From contig CAWDOY010000009.1 of the NCBI GenBank assembly GCA_963803975.1, positions 1-64,000 of the forward strand: DNA of 64,000 nt. The letters run 5' to 3'. This document shows, piece after piece, positions 1 through 59,104 of the stretch (the first letter of the stretch is position 1; each line of letters begins with the position of its first letter). The notes below the pieces were generated by a model. That model was not told the DNA's origin, searched no databases, and saw only the letters and a list, made by a program, of their open reading frames with translations. The position numbers and the translations under genes were made by a program. The DNA comes from an uncultured delta proteobacterium (GTDB taxonomy: Bacteria; Desulfobacterota; WTBG01; CAIYCZ01).

Positions 1-200
1 CTCATGGTTTATCCTCTATTTTATATGTGCCCACCGCTTCTTCAAACGCAACATGGTACCGCGCACAGCTTATTTCAAACTGCAGATGATAAATCTTGCG
101 GCAATTATTATCTATTTAAGAATGGGCTTTGGCATTGCTCCGGCAGAATATCACTATATTGTAACCCGGTTCCAGTACCTTTTTGGAGGAGGCATGTAAT

Positions 201-1793
201 ATGGCTTTGACTGCTTTTACCCGCGAGGAATTTGTCAGGCATGTGCGAAACATGGCCCTCATGGGACTGGTGTTATACATCGGGGGAATTCTGACCGGGT
301 ATGTGACCAACTGGGTTTGCCTGATGCTCGGACTGTGCGCACTGACGCTGTTCTTTACTGATTTCTATTACGGCAGGACCAAAGGAGCATCGTATTTCTG
401 GTTTTTTGTTTTCATATACGGCATGGGTAACTACAAGCCCTTCCGCTTTCCCCTCAACGCAGAAGCCTGGAAAGTGCAGACCAATGACATAATAGACTGG
501 ATCGTGGGCGGCAAGGGCGTGATGCTGTTCCCCAAAGCTGACTGGGTGATGCTGACGCCTCTTCTGGCCTATACACTGTACATTGCCATCCGGCTTCTCA
601 AGACCCCGCCGGACCCTGCAGCAAAAGCAAAAATGACCGTTCCCACCAAGAAATGGCGCATGTTTACCCAGACGTTTGTGCTGGTCTGGTACTTTGTAAT
701 TTTTGCTTCCGGCATGACCGCCCGGCCCATCGAAAACCCGGAGCTGCTGTTCTGGGCCCTTGCCATGCTCCTTGGCTCCCTGCTCCTGCCGTTTTTCATC
801 GGCCGCTGGTTCTGCGGCTGGTTCTGCCCGGTCGGCGCACTGCAGGACGGCATACTGAAGCATTTTAAAAATTACACGGGAATTAAAATTACCGATAAAT
901 TCCGCTCCCAGATTAACCGTATTTATGTCCCTGCCATTATGGTTGGGACGATAATTGTTGTCTATACCTTTGAGCGGGTATTCCAGCTTGCTTCATCCGC
1001 GGAGATGATCACCTCTCCTGACTGGAAAAATCTCTGGAAACCGATGGTGTGGACAAAAACCCTCACCAACGGCATGTTCCTCGGGTCAATCCTGTTTGCC
1101 TACCGCGTGTACTGCCGCTATTTCTGCTGGTATATAGGCTACCGGGTAACGCTCGGTCATCCGTCCCTGTACCGGGTGCCGTTTAAAACAGAGCGCTGCC
1201 AGATTTGCCCGGAATGCCCGCCGGAACAGCACTGCACCATGGGATACCAGTTTCAGTCAAAGCCCGAAGGGGAAGAGGGGCTTTCCATACGAAACATTGG
1301 TGAAGCGCCGGCCACCTGCACCCTCTGCTATGAATGCCGGGACACCTGCCCCCACGGCGTGTTCCGCGGCAAGATTAAGCGGATCAATGTCGTGCCTGAG
1401 CGCTGCGTTGGCTGCAGGCTCTGCGAGCTTGCCTGCTCAGGGGGAAGGCTTGGCGTATTTGATCCCGTTCGGTCAAATATTCAGATCGAGATGGAGGGCA
1501 TTCCCGAGCTCCCGGTGCCGAAGATCAAGGACACCTGCGATGCCTGCAACGGCGATCCCAAGTGCATCAAGGTATGTCCGGCCCGGGTGATTATCTGGGA
1601 CAAGGAAGGGGTACGCAAAGATATAAAAGTCAACCGCCCCGGTGTGGTAAAGAAGTTTTTCAGAAAGATCAACCCATTCTCAAAGGCACCGGCAGCGTGT
1701 GATACCCTGTGTGGCGCGTATCCCCAGGGGTGTCCCAGCTGTGAAAGCAACAAGGCCCTGCCGCAAGAGCAAGCCAAAGGAGTAGCCGCATGA
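201..1793 (+). CDS. Polytopic membrane 4Fe-4S protein (NapH/MauN-like) fused to a C-terminal multi-ferredoxin domain
   Basis: GGAGGAGG RBS before ATG 201. Many hydrophobic helices; GRWFCGWFCPVG and YCRYFCW motifs; CTLCYECRDTCP, CVGCRLCELAC and CDACNGDPKCIKVCP. Stop overlaps the next ATG (ATGA). Confidence 0.85.
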   Translation: MALTAFTREEFVRHVRNMALMGLVLYIGGILTGYVTNWVCLMLGLCALTLFFTDFYYGRTKGASYFWFFVFIYGMGNYKPFRFPLNAEAWKVQTNDIIDWIVGGKGVMLFPKADWVMLTPLLAYTLYIAIRLLKTPPDPAAKAKMTVPTKKWRMFTQTFVLVWYFVIFASGMTARPIENPELLFWALAMLLGSLLLPFFIGRWFCGWFCPVGALQDGILKHFKNYTGIKITDKFRSQINRIYVPAIMVGTIIVVYTFERVFQLASSAEMITSPDWKNLWKPMVWTKTLTNGMFLGSILFAYRVYCRYFCWYIGYRVTLGHPSLYRVPFKTERCQICPECPPEQHCTMGYQFQSKPEGEEGLSIRNIGEAPATCTLCYECRDTCPHGVFRGKIKRINVVPERCVGCRLCELACSGGRLGVFDPVRSNIQIEMEGIPELPVPKIKDTCDACNGDPKCIKVCPARVIIWDKEGVRKDIKVNRPGVVKKFFRKINPFSKAPAACDTLCGAYPQGCPSCESNKALPQEQAKGVAA

Positions 1794-3682
1794 GCAGAGC
1801 GATGCTGTATAAAGGATATACCAGAAAAATCCTCAGGGTAAACCTCACCGAAGGCACGGTAAAAGCGGAGGAGCTTCCCAACGGGCAGCTGAGAAAATAT
1901 ATCGGCGGTGCCGGCCTTGCCGCGCGGATGCTCTATGATGAGCTCGCCCCGGGCATTGACCCCCTGTCTCCGGACAATAAGGTACTCTTTCTTGCCGGAC
2001 CGCTGGCCGGGACCATTGCGCCCACGGGAAGCCGCATCGGGGTGTATACCAAGTCGCCGCTCACCAACGGTTTTTTCCATTCTTCAGCAGGGGGGTATTT
2101 TGCCCCGGAGCTGAAATATGCCGGCTACGACGGCGTGATTATCGAAGGTGCCAGCAAAACCCCGGTGTATCTCTATGTCGATAATGAGCGGGCAGAGCTG
2201 CGCGATGCCTCGCGCGTCTGGGGAGAGCGCACTGATGCAACCCAGCAGTGGTTGAAAGGCGATATCGGGGACGAGGCAGCGCAGCTCGCCGTGATCGGCC
2301 CTGCAGGAGAGCGCATGGTCAGGTTTGCCAACATTACCTCAGGATGCCGGAGTCTGGGCCGGGGCGGCATCGGCGCAGTGCTCGGATCTAAAAAGTTTAA
2401 AGCGCTTGCCGTAAGGGGAAAAGGAAAGCTTGAAGTTCATGATATGGAAGGCACCCTGAAACTCTCTCGTGAAATCATGCAGATTATGAAGGGTAACCCC
2501 TCCACGGGACAAGTTCTTCCCTGGTTCGGGACACCGGTACTGGTCAATGCCAACAACAGCCTCGGCGTATTTGGCGCGCGCAACTGGCAGCAGGAGACGT
2601 TCGAAGGGGCTGAAGGTTTGAGTGCTGAAACCATGCGGCAAAAAATTGTGGTGCGTGATAAAGCCTGTTTTGCCTGTCCGATCAAGTGCAGCAAATACAG
2701 CGTGGTGACCAATGCCCCGTTTGAGGGATACACGGTTGAAGGCCCTGAATACGAAAACATCTTTGCCCTGGGCTCCATGTGCGGCATTTCCTCCATTGAA
2801 GCGGTTGCCGCAGCAGAGCGTGAATGTGATGACCTGGGTATGGATGCCATAGAAACCGGCGTCTCCATTGCCTTTGCCATGGAAAATTTTGAAAAAGGAA
2901 ATCTCTCTGCCCGGGATACTGACGGCCTGGAACTGAGATTCGGCAAAACAGAGCTTATGCTTCCCCTGATAGGGAAAATCGCCCGGCGCGAGGGATTCGG
3001 CAATCTCCTGGCAGAGGGCGTGAAACGGGCAGCTGAAAAGATCGGTAAAGGCTCCGAGGCTTTTGCCATGCAGAACAAGGGCATGACCTTTGCCGGCCAT
3101 TCGGCCCGCGGCCTGCCGGGCTTTGCCCTTGGCTATGCCACCGGCCCCCGCGGCGGGTCACACCATGACAGCCGCCCCACCGGCGAGCGCTGCGGCATTG
3201 TGCAGCGCGACACCATTGAAGGCAAACCCGCCTATACGGTAAAAGTCAATCACCTGATGATATTTACTGATTCCATGATTATCTGTCATCTTGCTGAAGC
3301 GATCTGGGGCCCCATAGAGATTAATCCGGTGGTGGTCGATATTTTAAACCGGGTTACGGGGATGGATGTCACCACCGGGGAGGCGGAACTCACTGCCGAG
3401 CGCATCTGGAATGTTATCCGCGCCTTTGCCGTCCGTGAGGGATTGCGGCGCAAAGACGATACCCTGCCCCGGAGGTTCCTCACCGAACCGATACCGGATG
3501 GTCCTTCCAAGGGTATGGTTATAACAGAAGAGACGCTGGAAAAGATGAAAGATGAATATTACGAAATAAGAGGCTGGGACAGGGCCACCGGCATTCCCAC
3601 GCCGCAGCGGCTGCTGCGCCTTGACCTTCCCGATATTGCTGAAGACATGAAACAGATATTAAGCCAGGAACAGGGGAGGTGA
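1790..3682 (+). CDS. aor: Aldehyde:ferredoxin oxidoreductase family protein (tungstopterin enzyme)
   Basis: 630 aa with ILRVNLT, YIGGAGL, TKSPLT, GRGGIGAVLGSKK, CFACPIKC, EGPEYE, CDDLGMD, DDTLPRRF and YYEIRGWD motifs. Confidence 0.95.
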   Translation: MSRAMLYKGYTRKILRVNLTEGTVKAEELPNGQLRKYIGGAGLAARMLYDELAPGIDPLSPDNKVLFLAGPLAGTIAPTGSRIGVYTKSPLTNGFFHSSAGGYFAPELKYAGYDGVIIEGASKTPVYLYVDNERAELRDASRVWGERTDATQQWLKGDIGDEAAQLAVIGPAGERMVRFANITSGCRSLGRGGIGAVLGSKKFKALAVRGKGKLEVHDMEGTLKLSREIMQIMKGNPSTGQVLPWFGTPVLVNANNSLGVFGARNWQQETFEGAEGLSAETMRQKIVVRDKACFACPIKCSKYSVVTNAPFEGYTVEGPEYENIFALGSMCGISSIEAVAAAERECDDLGMDAIETGVSIAFAMENFEKGNLSARDTDGLELRFGKTELMLPLIGKIARREGFGNLLAEGVKRAAEKIGKGSEAFAMQNKGMTFAGHSARGLPGFALGYATGPRGGSHHDSRPTGERCGIVQRDTIEGKPAYTVKVNHLMIFTDSMIICHLAEAIWGPIEINPVVVDILNRVTGMDVTTGEAELTAERIWNVIRAFAVREGLRRKDDTLPRRFLTEPIPDGPSKGMVITEETLEKMKDEYYEIRGWDRATGIPTPQRLLRLDLPDIAEDMKQILSQEQGR

Positions 3683-54784: not shown

Positions 54785-55000
54785 TTACCGGGCAGGCAAT
54801 TTCCGCCCGCTGGAGCTCTTCTTCTCTTTGGCCTCACATGCAAAGCGAGAACATGTCGAAAGCCACTGAAGTTTCTGCTCAGGATTCAACGCTTTGAACT
54901 CGGTGTGGCCGTCAAAAAGATTATCAGACATGGCGCGCACCAGCTCTCTGAATCTCCCTGTTTCATCAGTAACGTCTTTTTTCTTTCTGCCTGATTTCAT
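54785..55000 (-). CDS. Small partner protein of the nucleotidyltransferase (toxin-antitoxin-like)
   Basis: ATGA overlap with the upstream gene; LNPEQKLQWL motif. Confidence 0.65.
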   Translation of the reverse strand: MKSGRKKKDVTDETGRFRELVRAMSDNLFDGHTEFKALNPEQKLQWLSTCSRFACEAKEKKSSSGRKLPAR

Positions 55001-55521
55001 GACCGATTCCCCTCTTCTCGCAGGAGTTTTTCCAACGCCTGAATGTCAAAGATGTCTTTATCCCGCAAGGGTGTAATTGATCTTTTCAGTTCAAGCAGCT
55101 TCTTTTTAGACAAAAGCTTCACCGTATGTCCACTGATAGCAAGTTGCTCCGCACCACCCTTCAGCGCATTAAACGACAGTTCCTCGGTTAAAAAAATGTC
55201 AACCTGCCGGAAGGGGTTGCTGGTGTCAATAAAGGTAAAAACCAGCGCATTCTTTTCTTCGATAAAAACCCTGCGCTGTTCAGGATCAAGTAATGATTCA
55301 GCAGGAACAGGAGCCCGAGGGGTGAGTTTCAGCTTTTTCATGGCCGCGAGAAATTTTCGCAGATTGTGTGCGGTCATATCTATGGCCAGGTCAATATCCA
55401 TGGTCATGCGCTCAATGCCGTGCAGAACCAGCGCCACCCCACCGCAGATTATAAACCGCACCCCGTCTTCATCAAGTGTTGTAATGATTTCTTTGAGATG
55501 ATTTTTTTCTTGTTCAGCCAT
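54997..55521 (-). CDS. Minimal nucleotidyltransferase (Pol beta superfamily)
   Basis: ICGGVALVLHG..RMTMDID, VDIF and K...RDKDIFD. Confidence 0.85.
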   Translation of the reverse strand: MAEQEKNHLKEIITTLDEDGVRFIICGGVALVLHGIERMTMDIDLAIDMTAHNLRKFLAAMKKLKLTPRAPVPAESLLDPEQRRVFIEEKNALVFTFIDTSNPFRQVDIFLTEELSFNALKGGAEQLAISGHTVKLLSKKKLLELKRSITPLRDKDIFDIQALEKLLREEGNRS

Positions 55522-55538
55522 ACCAGTACTATACCACT

Positions 55539-55956
55539 TTATGTTGAGCTTTCGTGAATCAATATTTCCGTCACGCCCTGCTTCACTATTCTGAATGCCC
55601 GCACCTCCGGCTGCTTCCTGTTTTTCAGGGAGATTATGAAATAGACCGCGTCAGGGTGAAAGGCAAGGCTGATGTCCATGCCCGAGGGGTCTGACAGGGC
55701 CTTTGGGGTGCGAGTGATAAATACCCAGCAGGCTCCCGCTCCCTTCCCCCAGTTCGGTGAATATTTCTACCTGCTCCTCAGGGGACATGAAATAGGAGTC
55801 AGGCGCGGGGTGGACGCTGGTGACGGGGATCACGCGCTCAAAAACACCCTGCTGCCCGATGAGCACCCCGCAGCATTCATTGGGAAGCTCCCGCCGGGCA
55901 TGCTCTATCATGGCGCTGAGCAAATGGGATGAAAGCGTTATTGCTGCATGTTCCAT
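55539..55956 (-). CDS. JAB/MPN (M67) metalloprotease (frame change near 55685)
   Basis: PNECCGVL and GIYHSHP; the other frame continues PSGMD...YFIISL...VRAFRI. Confidence 0.88.
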
Positions 55957-55976
55957 ATTTTCCCCCGGCAAAATAA

Positions 55977-56005
55977 TTGACATATTTTGGGGACTGTGTT
56001 AACTT
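55977..56005 (+). promoter_or_regulatory. Sigma70-type promoter upstream of the riboswitch
   Basis: TTGACA-17 nt-TAACTT with an extended -10 TG. Confidence 0.6.
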
Positions 56006-56042
56006 TGAAATCCTGATAAGGAAGAGAATTTTCAACACATAA

Positions 56043-56125
56043 CAGGCCTTCCGAGCTGCTTGTATACAGGCAGCCGATAAGGCTGAAGCAACCCTTCAGC
56101 CCGCCGTGTTTGCGAAGGAAGCCTG
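56043..56125 (+). ncRNA. Moco/tungsten-cofactor-type riboswitch aptamer (variant lacking P3)
   Basis: TCCGAGC-hairpin-GCCGATAAGG-hairpin with GCAA-CGC CGTGTTT GCG-AAGG, closed by P1 CAGGC(C)TTCC/GGAAGCCTG. Matches my recollection of the Moco RNA motif; no covariance search was run. Confidence 0.72.
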
Positions 56126-56165
56126 CAGGACATTGTCGAGGTGCATGTTCTGTCAGGCTTTTTTT
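56119..56165 (+). terminator. Intrinsic terminator overlapping riboswitch P1
   Basis: AAGCCTGCAGGACAT ... ATGTTCTGTCAGGCTT-TTTTT. Confidence 0.8.
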
Positions 56166-56286
56166 ATGCACGTATTGTATGTGAATTCCTTCCACATTTC
56201 AATTCTAATTGCAAGCATCAGTTTACGCATTATATATAACATAAGCGTACTGCAGATTAATATCCCAATCCACAGAGGAACCATGT

Positions 56287-56758
56287 ATGAAGGCTTTTAC
56301 GTTTAAACCGGAAAAATGCGATCTGTGCCGGAAGTGCGAGGAAGCGTGCGTTGCGGTCTGCGGCCCGGCTCAAGAAAAAGTCATCCGAATATGTCCCCCA
56401 CATACGGGTATTCCAGAGCCCGGAGGGCCCCTATATCAGGCTCTGCAGGCACTGCGAGGAACCGCCCTGTGTTGATGCCTGCATCGGGGAATCCCTGCAG
56501 CGGGGCCCGAACGGGCTGGTCATCCAGGACGAGGAGCGCTGCATCGGCTGCTTCATGTGCAACATGGTCTGCCCGCACGGCGCCATGAAAACCCTCATGA
56601 GCCAGGAAAAGGCGTTCAAGTGCACGCTTATGTGCGGCACCAAAACGCAGCCCACCTGCGTGCTTGCCTGTGACCGGGGAGCCCTGTTCTTTGAAGAGGT
56701 TTCCGCCCATAATAAAAACATCCGACGCGCCAAGCTTAAGGAGTTACCACGAAAATGA
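56287..56758 (+). CDS. 4x[4Fe-4S] electron-transfer subunit, CooF/DmsB-like (frame change near 56370)
   Basis: CDLCRKCEEAC, CRHCEEPPCVDAC, CIGCFMCNMVCP and KCTLMC...PTCVLAC. Confidence 0.9.
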
Positions 56759-58005
56759 AAACCAACGGCAGACAACACCTGATTATCGGCAATTGCATCG
56801 CGGCAGTTTCAGCTGCAGAAGTGCTGCGGAAGCAGAACCCCTCCGACACGATAACCATCATCGGTGATGAAGAGGTCCCCTCCTATTCCCGGTGCCTCAT
56901 TACCTATTATCTCGGGGACATGATAACCCGGAAGCACCTTTTGTCTCACAATGAGAAGTGGTATGCAGACCGGGACATTGACCTGCACCTCTCAACCAGG
57001 GCGCTCTCGGTCGACGCCAAAAAACATACGGTTATTGCCGAGCACAAGGGCAAAAAGAAAAAGTTCGAATATGACAAGCTGCTGGTTGCAACCGGCTCCA
57101 CCCCCATATTTCTTAAAAGCTTTCCCTATGATCCGGCCGGCATTATCGGCATGCGCAACTACCGCGATGCCGAGACCCTGAAGCGCTGGGCAAAGAAGGG
57201 AAAAAAGGCGATCATCATCGGTGCCGGGTTTGTCGGCTTGAAAACAGCCTACGGCCTTGCCAGGCAGGGCGTACAGGCAAAAGTGGTGGAGCTGCTGCCC
57301 ACCGTGCTGGGGCGCATGACCGATCTTGAGGCCAGCGCAAGGATTGTTGAGCGCCTCACCAGCCACAAGCTGATCGAGATTGAGCTCAACAACTCGGTCA
57401 CCGCCACCCGGAAGCAGGGGGACAAATACGTGGTCACCTATCAGAACGGCGCGGAAGAAGCGGCTGACTTTATCGTGGCCTCGGTCGGCGTTAAAGCCTG
57501 TGTCGAGTTTCTCGAAGGCACCGGCGCAGCATTAACGCGCGGGACCCTGCAGGTGAACGAGCGCCAGGAAACCACGGTTGCCGACATCTATGCTGCCGGT
57601 GATGTCTGTATATCTCCCCACATCATTTCCAGAGAATGGATCTATAACGCCATCTGGCCGGTTGCCGCTTCCCAGGGCCGGGTTGCCGCCTATAACATGT
57701 CAGGACAGCCGGCTGCCTATGCCGGCGATATCCCTATGAACAGCGTTGATTTTTTTGAGATGTGGATCACCGCCATCGGCAATGTCCAGGTCGAGGGTGC
57801 TGACATTGAGACGCTAAAATACATCAGCCCGCGCGTGTATCAGAAGGTGTTCATCCAGAAGGGAATCCCGATTGCCTTCATGGCGGTTGGCAATGTGGAC
57901 GGCGCCGGTCTCATCCGCGGCGCAATTGTCGCCGAGATGCCGTGGAAAGAGTTTGTAAAGAAGCCCCAGGCACGGGTGCTGCCAATAGCGGGGGAAGGAA
58001 TGTAA
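56755..58005 (+). CDS. FAD-dependent NAD(P)H oxidoreductase (NADH oxidase / NirB N-terminal family)
   Basis: YSRCLI, YDKLLVATGS, IIGAGFVG, IYAAGDV and QGRVAAYNM; ATGA coupling to the Fe-S gene. Confidence 0.9.
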   Translation: MKTNGRQHLIIGNCIAAVSAAEVLRKQNPSDTITIIGDEEVPSYSRCLITYYLGDMITRKHLLSHNEKWYADRDIDLHLSTRALSVDAKKHTVIAEHKGKKKKFEYDKLLVATGSTPIFLKSFPYDPAGIIGMRNYRDAETLKRWAKKGKKAIIIGAGFVGLKTAYGLARQGVQAKVVELLPTVLGRMTDLEASARIVERLTSHKLIEIELNNSVTATRKQGDKYVVTYQNGAEEAADFIVASVGVKACVEFLEGTGAALTRGTLQVNERQETTVADIYAAGDVCISPHIISREWIYNAIWPVAASQGRVAAYNMSGQPAAYAGDIPMNSVDFFEMWITAIGNVQVEGADIETLKYISPRVYQKVFIQKGIPIAFMAVGNVDGAGLIRGAIVAEMPWKEFVKKPQARVLPIAGEGM

Positions 58006-58016
58006 ATAAAAACCCT

Positions 58017-58130
58017 AATGTCAAAGCTCAAATGACAAATGAATGTCAAATCCTGAATTACCAATGAAACAGGGAGACCACCTTTGACATTTGGATTTCA
58101 TTTGGCATTGGGATTTTGAAATTTGACATT
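58017..58130. repeat. AT-rich imperfect hairpin made of CAAAT/ATTTG units (copy 2)
   Basis: Ends AATGTCAAA/TTTGACATT; shares CAAATGACAAAT and TCATTTGGCATT with 12852-12970. Confidence 0.8.
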
Positions 58131-58165: not shown

Positions 58166-59104
58166 ATGACCCAAAAAACCACCAGCTCTCCACAGAAGAA
58201 CATCCCCACTGCCCGCGTAAACGGCGTCATGATCAGCCAGTTCCAGCTGGAGTCAGGCGTTGAAGCGCTGCTGAAGCCATACGCGGATGTAAAGGGGAAA
58301 GTGCGCCTCCCCCAGGAGCAGCAGTACGCAGCGCGAAAAGCCGTGCTCGAAAACCTCATCATGCGGGAGCTTCTCTACCAGGAAGCATGCCGCAGGGGTA
58401 TCAAGGCTACGGACGAGGAAATAGAGAAAGTTATGGCTCTGGCAGTGGAAGAAGCCGGCTCCGAGAGGACCTTTAAGGCGATGATGGTGATGACCGGCTC
58501 AAGCCCTGAAGAGTACCGCAGCCAGATGATGAAAGATCTGGCGGTAAATAAAATGGCTGCCTCGGTGGTGGAGGGAAAGAAAAAACCGGTCACTGCGGAA
58601 GAGGCGCGCGCGTACTACGATGAGCATACGGCGGAAATGAGCGGCCCTGAGGCGCGCTGGCTCCTGCATATCATGCTGCCGCTTGATCAGTACGCCGCGG
58701 AGGCTGAAGAAAAAAAAGCGCGGGAGAAGCTCGAAAAGATACGCGCTGCAGGACCCGGCGGGTTTGCAAAAAGTCTGCGCACGCAGGGCGAGGACATGGG
58801 CTATGTCATGCGCGGCCAGCTGCACCCCATCCTTGATTCAGTAGTGTTCTCAACGCCGGCAGGCCAGATTACCCGGGTCATGCGGACCGAAGAGGGCCTG
58901 CATCTGATCCTGGTGAAAGAAGTATTGAAGGCGGGCGAGGTGCGGCCGTTCAATGCCGCCGTGGAAAAAGAGCTGCAGGAAAAGCTCTATGAAATGCGCT
59001 CAGTTGCAATGCTCCAGGAATTTACCGCAAAGCTGCACAAAAAAGCCGAGATAGAAATACTGGATACGTTTGTTGAAGCCCGGCTTGACATGGAGGAGAG
59101 CTGA
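58166..59104 (+). CDS. SurA/PrsA/NifM-like parvulin-domain chaperone lacking a signal peptide
   Basis: ARVNG..I, LENLI.RELLYQEA, HIML, GEDMGY..RGQL and TEEGLHLI. Confidence 0.8.
   Translation: MTQKTTSSPQKNIPTARVNGVMISQFQLESGVEALLKPYADVKGKVRLPQEQQYAARKAVLENLIMRELLYQEACRRGIKATDEEIEKVMALAVEEAGSERTFKAMMVMTGSSPEEYRSQMMKDLAVNKMAASVVEGKKKPVTAEEARAYYDEHTAEMSGPEARWLLHIMLPLDQYAAEAEEKKAREKLEKIRAAGPGGFAKSLRTQGEDMGYVMRGQLHPILDSVVFSTPAGQITRVMRTEEGLHLILVKEVLKAGEVRPFNAAVEKELQEKLYEMRSVAMLQEFTAKLHKKAEIEILDTFVEARLDMEES

Follow-up and report, generated by a model that had tools for sequence, protein, structure and literature searches.

The leader of a predicted operon for iron-sulfur (Fe-S) and FAD subunits in an uncultured delta proteobacterium contains an RNA element that is probably a transcriptional ON switch responding to the tungsten-pterin cofactor. 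The element lies in a stretch of 64,000 nucleotides (nt) (GenBank assembly GCA_963803975.1, contig CAWDOY010000009.1, positions 1 to 64,000), hereinafter the window. Judging from sequence and predicted structure, it is a minimal relative of the molybdenum cofactor (Moco)/tungsten cofactor (Tuco) motif, RF01055 in Rfam, that lacks stem P3 as well as the tetraloop and its receptor, and is a variant rather than a plain member of this family.

The promoter, the 83-nt fold, the junction and the terminator were all found where a preliminary description of this DNA had placed them (Table 1), and the transcript is predicted to start near 56012. The extended promoter pattern recurs in 11 of the 15 orthologous leaders; a promoter and terminator scanner run over the leader flagged neither signal, the -10 box has 3 of 6 matches and the terminator stem is bulged. 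The best candidate for a downstream promoter between the terminator and the open reading frame (ORF) has 8 of 12 matches, and such a promoter is not supported. None of 200 shuffled sequences folds as well as the aptamer (-39.3 kcal/mol, z-score -4.95), and the terminator fold has a z-score of -4.5. Five bases, G56121-G56125, are common to the 3' strand of P1 and the base of the terminator 5' arm, and the CAGGC of the P1 5' strand is repeated in the terminator 3' arm, so that P1 and the terminator compete for one strand. Two details of the preliminary description need correction: the terminator 5' arm, given as AAGCCTG, does share the P1 3' strand, but its AA pairs solely with the U-tract; and the P5 hairpin, given as CGC-CGTGTTT-GCG, is present, but with a firm helix of only 2 bp and an outer pair that is C-A in 25 of 34 homologues.

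Folding of successive transcript prefixes completes the aptamer before the terminator 3' arm, with P1 at a probability of 0.89-1.0 from 56126 to 56154; the terminator 3' arm later displaces the P1 5' strand. In ligand-free folding, the terminator is favored by 1.5 kcal/mol at 56158 and by 6.7 kcal/mol with the full U-tract. We propose that, in the nascent RNA, the aptamer would form first, with P1 closed; that, without ligand, the terminator 3' arm would take the P1 5' strand, causing termination; and that a tungsten-pterin cofactor bound in the junction would hold P1 shut, block the terminator and turn the genes on. The binding energy of the ligand could plausibly cover the advantage of the terminator. 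Stabilization of P1 by the ligand is suggested by analogy, because in Escherichia coli P1 holds the ribosome site and the cofactor represses, and the tungsten cofactor is the suggested ligand because of the missing P3 and the gene context. The Fe-S/FAD pair would couple the WorS-associated AOR encoded 8.7 kb downstream to NAD(H), large tungsten and Fe-S enzymes would be made only with the cofactor at hand, and the canonical copies in the same genome would shut its uptake and synthesis. In a fold constrained to the aptamer, the predicted 5' end of the transcript (56012-56016) pairs with the terminator 3' arm (56153-56157), an observation contingent on the start site.

A DNA search of 60 relatives with a 341-nt query, in which the relatives matched mainly over the RNA part, a pattern scan of GTDB contigs and the fetched regions together yielded 34 distinct copies of the minimal RNA, 60-78 nt in size, all from uncultured deltaproteobacteria/Thermodesulfobacteriota. 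The pattern scan contributed 22 of its 27 loci; L036, L040, L041, L046 and L049 were discarded as chance matches lacking P1 and P2, as were, likewise, L025-L027. A model built from the 34 copies, R1, gives the copy in the window, itself a training member, 82.2 bits, and detects 37 copies at or above 59.7 bits in 18 of the 21 genomes of the order, the training set of 34 included. In an alignment made from sequence only, 92.2% of the cells are paired, compared with 81.3% in shuffled and 26-56% in slid controls, and two-sided changes were found in 5 of the 6 pairs of P2 and 4 of the 7 pairs of P4; an anchor-based, alignment-free count agrees on the covariation of P2 and P4. The junction bases are invariant and the stems variable, and in two copies (L045 and L071) P1 and the terminator change together. 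The conserved structure that the preliminary description had proposed to look for among homologues is thus present. Among the matches listed from a loose metagenome pattern scan, none of 80 loci exceeded 23 bits with R1, a result with no bearing on distribution; phylum-level R1 matches below 29 bits, among them group I intron-like sequence and further stretches with no relation to the motif, were ignored.

The minimal RNA evidently descends from the Moco motif, as had been proposed: R1 matches five canonical Moco RNAs of its own genome at 29-45 bits (E-values down to 2e-9), relatives that keep the GNRA loop score 35-55 bits with RF01055 (cut-off, 36 bits), and 6 of 16 minimal copies match RF01055 at 23-37 bits, one of them above the cut-off and 15 of the 16 below it. 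The junction columns agree with the RF01055 consensus, P1, P2, P4 and P5 form a multistem junction, and only six nt separate P2 from P4, leaving no P3, again as originally described. The host is a tungsten user, with many AOR-family genes and a tungstate-type PBP_like_2 transporter. Two family features failed. For this copy, the covariance-model check named in the preliminary description is negative: at the gathering threshold, Rfam gives no RF01055 match in the window, and over 401 nt with an E-value limit of 10 it returns only a chance ssNA-helicase match (E 8.9). The other concerns the tertiary contact: none of the 34 minimal copies has a GNRA loop on P4 or the receptor in P2, the absence of the latter having been noted from the start, whereas among CC-type RNAs, those with the canonical P5, the loop is present in 33 of 33 parsed and the receptor in 47 of 55. 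With these two features failing and the rest present, the RNA is classed as a variant. Elsewhere in the source genome there are ten canonical RF01055 copies, including two tandem pairs, on G000 C57, C38, C37 and C48 (L001-L008, L057-L061), followed by genes for MoeA/ModABC, XDH-family proteins, a porin/tungstate transporter, moaA, an AOR and secreted proteins that match no Pfam family.

The comparison with published systems draws on the accessible portions of the cited papers. Tungsten sensing by the P3-lacking (Tuco/Wco) form of RF01055 was proposed from gene context only (PMC2408646). The minimal RNA shares with this form the arrangement of P1, P2, P4 and P5 around one junction without P3, the junction bases CCGAG, CGAUAAG and AAGG, a CGUGUUU-type P5 loop and the context of tungsten-enzyme genes (PMC2408646); it differs in its size, in lacking the GNRA loop and receptor, in a P5 with G-C/C-G pairs and an outer C-A, in a UUCC/GGAA P1, in the terminator that overlaps P1, and in scoring mostly below the Rfam cut-off. 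The 2008 set includes six members without the receptor, all of which have GNRA loops (PMC2408646). Precedents are Mth-1-1 of Moorella thermoacetica and Dre-1-1 of Desulfotomaculum reducens in the 2008 alignment, which have a GC-type P5, no receptor and an AOR operon downstream (PMC2408646), in Moorella including Fe-S, MoaD and FAD genes; by our reading of the rows, the terminator in both begins in the P1 3' strand. Unlike the minimal RNA, they keep a GCAA (GNRA) loop and have a longer P2; in the portions of the paper available, the missing receptor is remarked upon and no conclusion on an ON switch is drawn (PMC2408646). The E. coli moaA riboswitch belongs to the same family and its P1 also carries the control signal, but this genetically tested RNA has P3, is an OFF switch whose P1 contains the ribosome site, does not respond to tungstate and controls cofactor synthesis (PMC2408646). 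In Eubacterium limosum, a P3-less RF01055 RNA precedes a tungsten oxidoreductase operon, and cofactor-linked production of active enzyme has been proposed (PMC11725836); these RNAs, in contrast, are detectable by Rfam, the control of WOR1 is proposed to be translational, and the transcriptional copies (focA, fetABC1) rise under tungsten limitation, that is, are OFF switches (PMC11725836). Full-text literature searches of limited coverage returned no account of a subtype that switches transcription on, and none appears in the accessible portions of PMC12318220, PMC12121620, PMC9971707, PMC9481103, PMC9495176, PMC11477304 and PMC6365974.

The putative ON wiring is largely a feature of one of two subtypes. 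Of 100 Moco-like RNAs gathered from the fetched loci, 45 have a GC-type and 55 a CC-type P5; false parses, two in L251 and one in L066, were removed beforehand (the L251 rows remain in the lenient count of 57), and the parser missed some real copies (the second in L053, and L075 and L292-L294). Under a strict rule, the terminator overlaps P1 in 34 of the 42 GC-type RNAs with a terminator versus 2 of 39 such CC-type RNAs, a folding result that shows geometry only because a forced P1 excludes an overlapping terminator by construction; under a lenient rule, the counts are 43/45 and 5/57. The overlap of P1 and terminator seen in the window is thus conserved. Several canonical terminators hold the complement of P5, as expected of an antiterminator, but only 7 of 39 CC-type RNAs show the OFF pattern in equilibrium folding. 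The first genes were assigned by Pfam for representatives and by shared N-termini for the remainder, and the counts are not independent because a single order supplies 34 of the 45 GC-type RNAs. GC-type RNAs are followed by WorS-type Fe-S genes (22, with AOR next wherever displayed), AOR (10), Tat-type FDH (9), the Fe-S/FAD unit (2), a lipoprotein of unassigned family (1) and a contig end (1). Hence 41 of 45 precede AOR, WorS or FDH genes, which bears out the predicted association with AOR and FDH operons, the locus in the window showing this molybdenum/tungsten context only indirectly. The 55 CC-type RNAs are followed by genes for uptake or cofactor synthesis (32), XDH-family (4), NiFe small-subunit-like (3) and aldehyde dehydrogenase (2) proteins, AOR (4) and unassigned products (10); none of the four before AOR has a terminator. 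The GC-type wiring over AOR recurs in two further genomes of another phylum (L324 and L341), that of an Oscillospiraceae metagenome-assembled genome.

Some loci combine or extend these arrangements. In the Oscillospiraceae genome (L043:2456-2772), a GC-type RNA with an overlapping terminator and a CC-type RNA form a tandem ahead of a lipoprotein gene, possibly a band-pass arrangement. In L053, L088 and L298, AOR operons are preceded by GC-type RNAs in tandem, every one of which has a terminator of its own. CC-type RNAs precede genes for NAD-dependent aldehyde dehydrogenases and NiFe small-subunit-like proteins in L087, L261, L256, L301 and L303, possibly tungsten-independent alternatives repressed by the cofactor. 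GC-type RNAs also precede NuoE/NuoF-like bifurcating modules in L293 and L339 (identified by eye from the ORF starts), and in G005 and G008 a NuoE/NuoF-like module is located upstream of the Fe-S/FAD unit.

Which enzyme the Fe-S/FAD pair serves is a separate matter. The preliminary description had pointed to a catalytic aor about 54 kb away; that gene exists (1790-3682), but it is one among very many AOR-family genes, which are spread over at least 15 contigs of the genome, no link to it was found, and the R1 search finds no RNA copy in its region (183-3682), where a gene for a membrane polyferredoxin of 536 aa precedes aor. The WorS-associated AOR under a second copy of the switch, just past the window, is more likely to be the catalytic partner, judging from gene order; a divergent ThiF/MoeB gene lies beside this locus (G000:C9:65912-68648; L056:3913-6649). 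The Fe-S/FAD unit and worSL are within 9 kb of each other in 6 of 15 genomes; in eight the fetched flanks contain no AOR, and one is outside the comparison. As for the description of the pair as electron-transfer partners of AOR, the best PDB match of the FAD protein is AorC, but the two proteins make up an NAD(H)-coupling module of a generic kind, related to PadH, with distant homologues beside glutamate-synthase and CODH-like genes, so the assignment rests on synteny. As in AorABC of Aromatoleum aromaticum, Fe-S and FAD subunits occur together with MoaD-like neighbors (PMC6365974, PDB 8c0z); the similarity is at the family level, because here the two genes form a separate unit with a peptidyl-prolyl isomerase and the AOR has its own WorS, so that the three-subunit, one-operon layout of AorABC is not reproduced.

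It is somewhat unlikely that the pair instead serves as the NAD(H) module of another enzyme, such as CODH/ACS, FDH or a 2-oxoacid oxidoreductase. Homologues of 33-35% identity outside the order lie, as judged by eye from ORF starts, beside glutamate-synthase-like (7/8) or CODH-like (1/8) genes, in NCBIfam the pair comes closest to PadH and PadI-like families, below the cut-off, and the eight genomes without a flanking AOR fit such a role; listed with these points is a tblastn search that found no Fe-S/FAD module at the CODH/ACS cluster of the genome itself on C54. The proximity of worSL in the six genomes, the JAB, MoaD-like and ThiF/MoeB neighbors, the AorC match, the best in PDB, and the Moorella GC-type RNA, which heads HybA, AOR, MoaD and NirB-like genes, argue for AOR.

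Apart from the RF01055 miss, the purely geometric strict rule and the dependence among the counts, several observations weigh against a tungsten cofactor-responsive ON switch at this locus. The GC-type RNAs of Thermus precede modA, and L085 and L299 use a different platform, so that a GC-type P5 is not always ON. Across the 34 copies, the upper part of P1 and the two inner P5 pairs are paired yet invariant, so covariation gives them no test, and lower P1 is imperfectly paired. Of the 15 orthologous Fe-S/FAD operons, only 2 are preceded by the RNA, and in contigs from runs X2 and X16 (one DNA run, one RNA run) 56004 is joined to 56174 by 80 letters instead of 169. No contig from the RNA runs spans the element, which carries no weight because such contigs cannot show termination. 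In this assembly, the Fe-S frame is broken near 56370 by one extra base, a defect missed in the preliminary description. Finally, with the tetraloop and receptor lost and P5 flipped, the ligand could differ.

On this last point, it is unlikely that the GC-type RNAs form a riboswitch class of their own, derived from the Moco motif, with a pocket retuned to a different pterin species by the flip in P5, by the C-A pair and by the lost contact between tetraloop and receptor; were this the case, the ligand would be the mature tungsten cofactor ready for insertion, one cell would read two cofactor states, and of the sister RNAs one would turn enzymes on and the other turn supply off. A rather improbable possibility is an ON riboswitch whose GC-type pocket senses a ligand other than that of canonical Moco/Tuco RNAs: another pterin state (e.g., mature bis-pterin versus precursor), the molybdenum form, or a signal common to AOR and FDH operons, be it a substrate or a redox cue. 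The fixed P5 differences beside the junction (the middle pair is G-C in 34/34 copies, with the outer C-A in 25/34), the loss from all 34 of the loop and receptor that all parsed and most CC-type RNAs, respectively, retain, and the coexistence in genomes of both types heading different gene classes are compatible with such a ligand, but agreement with RF01055 extends over the P1 core, the two junctions and the loop of P5, and intermediates connect the two types. AOR and FDH operons, moreover, have the tungsten/molybdenum-pterin cofactor in common and no common substrate, which also counts against another ligand.

The switch is found mainly in the leaders of worSL, aor and fdh. Quite improbably, the family functions at worSL and FDH operons while the copy in the window is dispensable or decaying, a constitutive attenuator before a broken first gene. 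Besides its rarity at orthologous operons and the Fe-S frameshift, the element is absent between homologous flanks in a genome of the same family (G003), remnant-like motifs occur in three other leaders (without a chance control), and a close strain, which is about 89 nt shorter here, seems to lack most of the switch. On the other hand, every invariant base is kept and P1 has 9 bp, run X1 covers the element in near-identical strains, and the frame is intact in all four runs, so that the shift may be an assembly slip; the copy of G014 at this position is closest to the worSL copy of the same genome, which fits recruitment or conversion. Very improbably, the conserved junction binds a protein (e.g., a cofactor-loaded enzyme or a maturation factor) that protects P1 and causes antitermination: the RNA is small and, as far as the available text of the 2008 paper goes, direct ligand binding was left untested there, the cofactor being unstable (PMC2408646), but the pattern occurs in two phyla with riboswitch-like invariant junctions, and no regulator gene is tied to the RNA in the listed loci, although no search aimed at regulators was made.

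A natural form of 60-78 nt without the tetraloop-receptor contact marks the core requirement of the fold and suits probing and structure work. Because the terminator overlaps P1, single-round transcription offers a gain-of-signal assay within minutes, fit for an unstable cofactor, and the proposed ON form and its OFF sister, present in the same genome, provide a built-in specificity comparison. Since the subtype mostly escapes Rfam, the tungsten-enzyme regulons of these anaerobes are under-annotated.

Table 1. Features of the leader and of adjacent loci (window positions; C9, contig positions)
Feature	Position	Strand	Details and basis
Sigma70-type promoter	55977..56005	+	TTGACA 55977-55982, 17 nt, TG-N-TAACTT 55997-56005; pattern, 11/15 orthologous leaders
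Minimal P3-less Moco/Tuco-type aptamer	56043..56125	+	83 nt; fold, covariation, model R1
P1	56043-56052/56117-56125	+	9 bp, one bulge
P2	56055-56074	+	8 bp
Junction CGAUAA between P2 and P4	56075-56080	+	six nt
P4	56081-56101	+	8 bp
P5	56102-56114	+	firm helix 2 bp
Intrinsic terminator	56121..56165	+	stem 56121-56158, U7 56159-56165
Fe-S dicluster subunit (HycB/WorS/AorA-like)	56287..56758	+	156 aa in orthologues; frameshifted in assembly
FAD/NAD(H) oxidoreductase, AorC/PadH/FNOR family	56755..58005	+	416 aa; Pyr_redox_2
SurA/PrsA-like peptidyl-prolyl isomerase	58166..59104	+	third conserved gene of unit; after FAD gene in 12/12 fetched relatives' regions
JAB/desampylase-like protease, divergent	55651..55983	-	probable start 55956; Prok-JAB E 2e-17; desampylase below cut-off
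Second RNA copy of the same switch	C9:65912-66002		just past window; before WorS and AOR
AOR	C9:66687-68648		654 aa; 8.7 kb downstream of FAD gene; under second RNA copy

The Fe-S/FAD unit is present in 15 of the 21 genomes of the order. The closest matches of the Fe-S protein are WorS and HycB. Its frameshift is likely an assembly slip rather than a lesion of the strain: contigs of all four sequencing runs have one base fewer at 56370-56372 and an intact frame. Because any single-base removal in the tested range opens the frame, the site was taken from these contigs. On C54 and C53, genes for CODH and HCP-family proteins also appear to be split into several frames, which hints at an indel-prone assembly. 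The FAD protein has AorC (8c0z_E, E 8e-42) as its best PDB match and PadH, below the cut-off, as its best NCBIfam match. The JAB protease gene accompanies the unit in 9 of the 12 regions fetched from relatives, a context of sulfur-carrier processing. Between the FAD and isomerase genes, a short repeat (58017-58130) is abundant in the metagenomes, with a depth spike and many loose ends. Farther upstream, a nucleotidyltransferase of 174 aa (54997-55521) with weak AbiEii/DUF6036 matches is possibly a toxin-antitoxin remnant.

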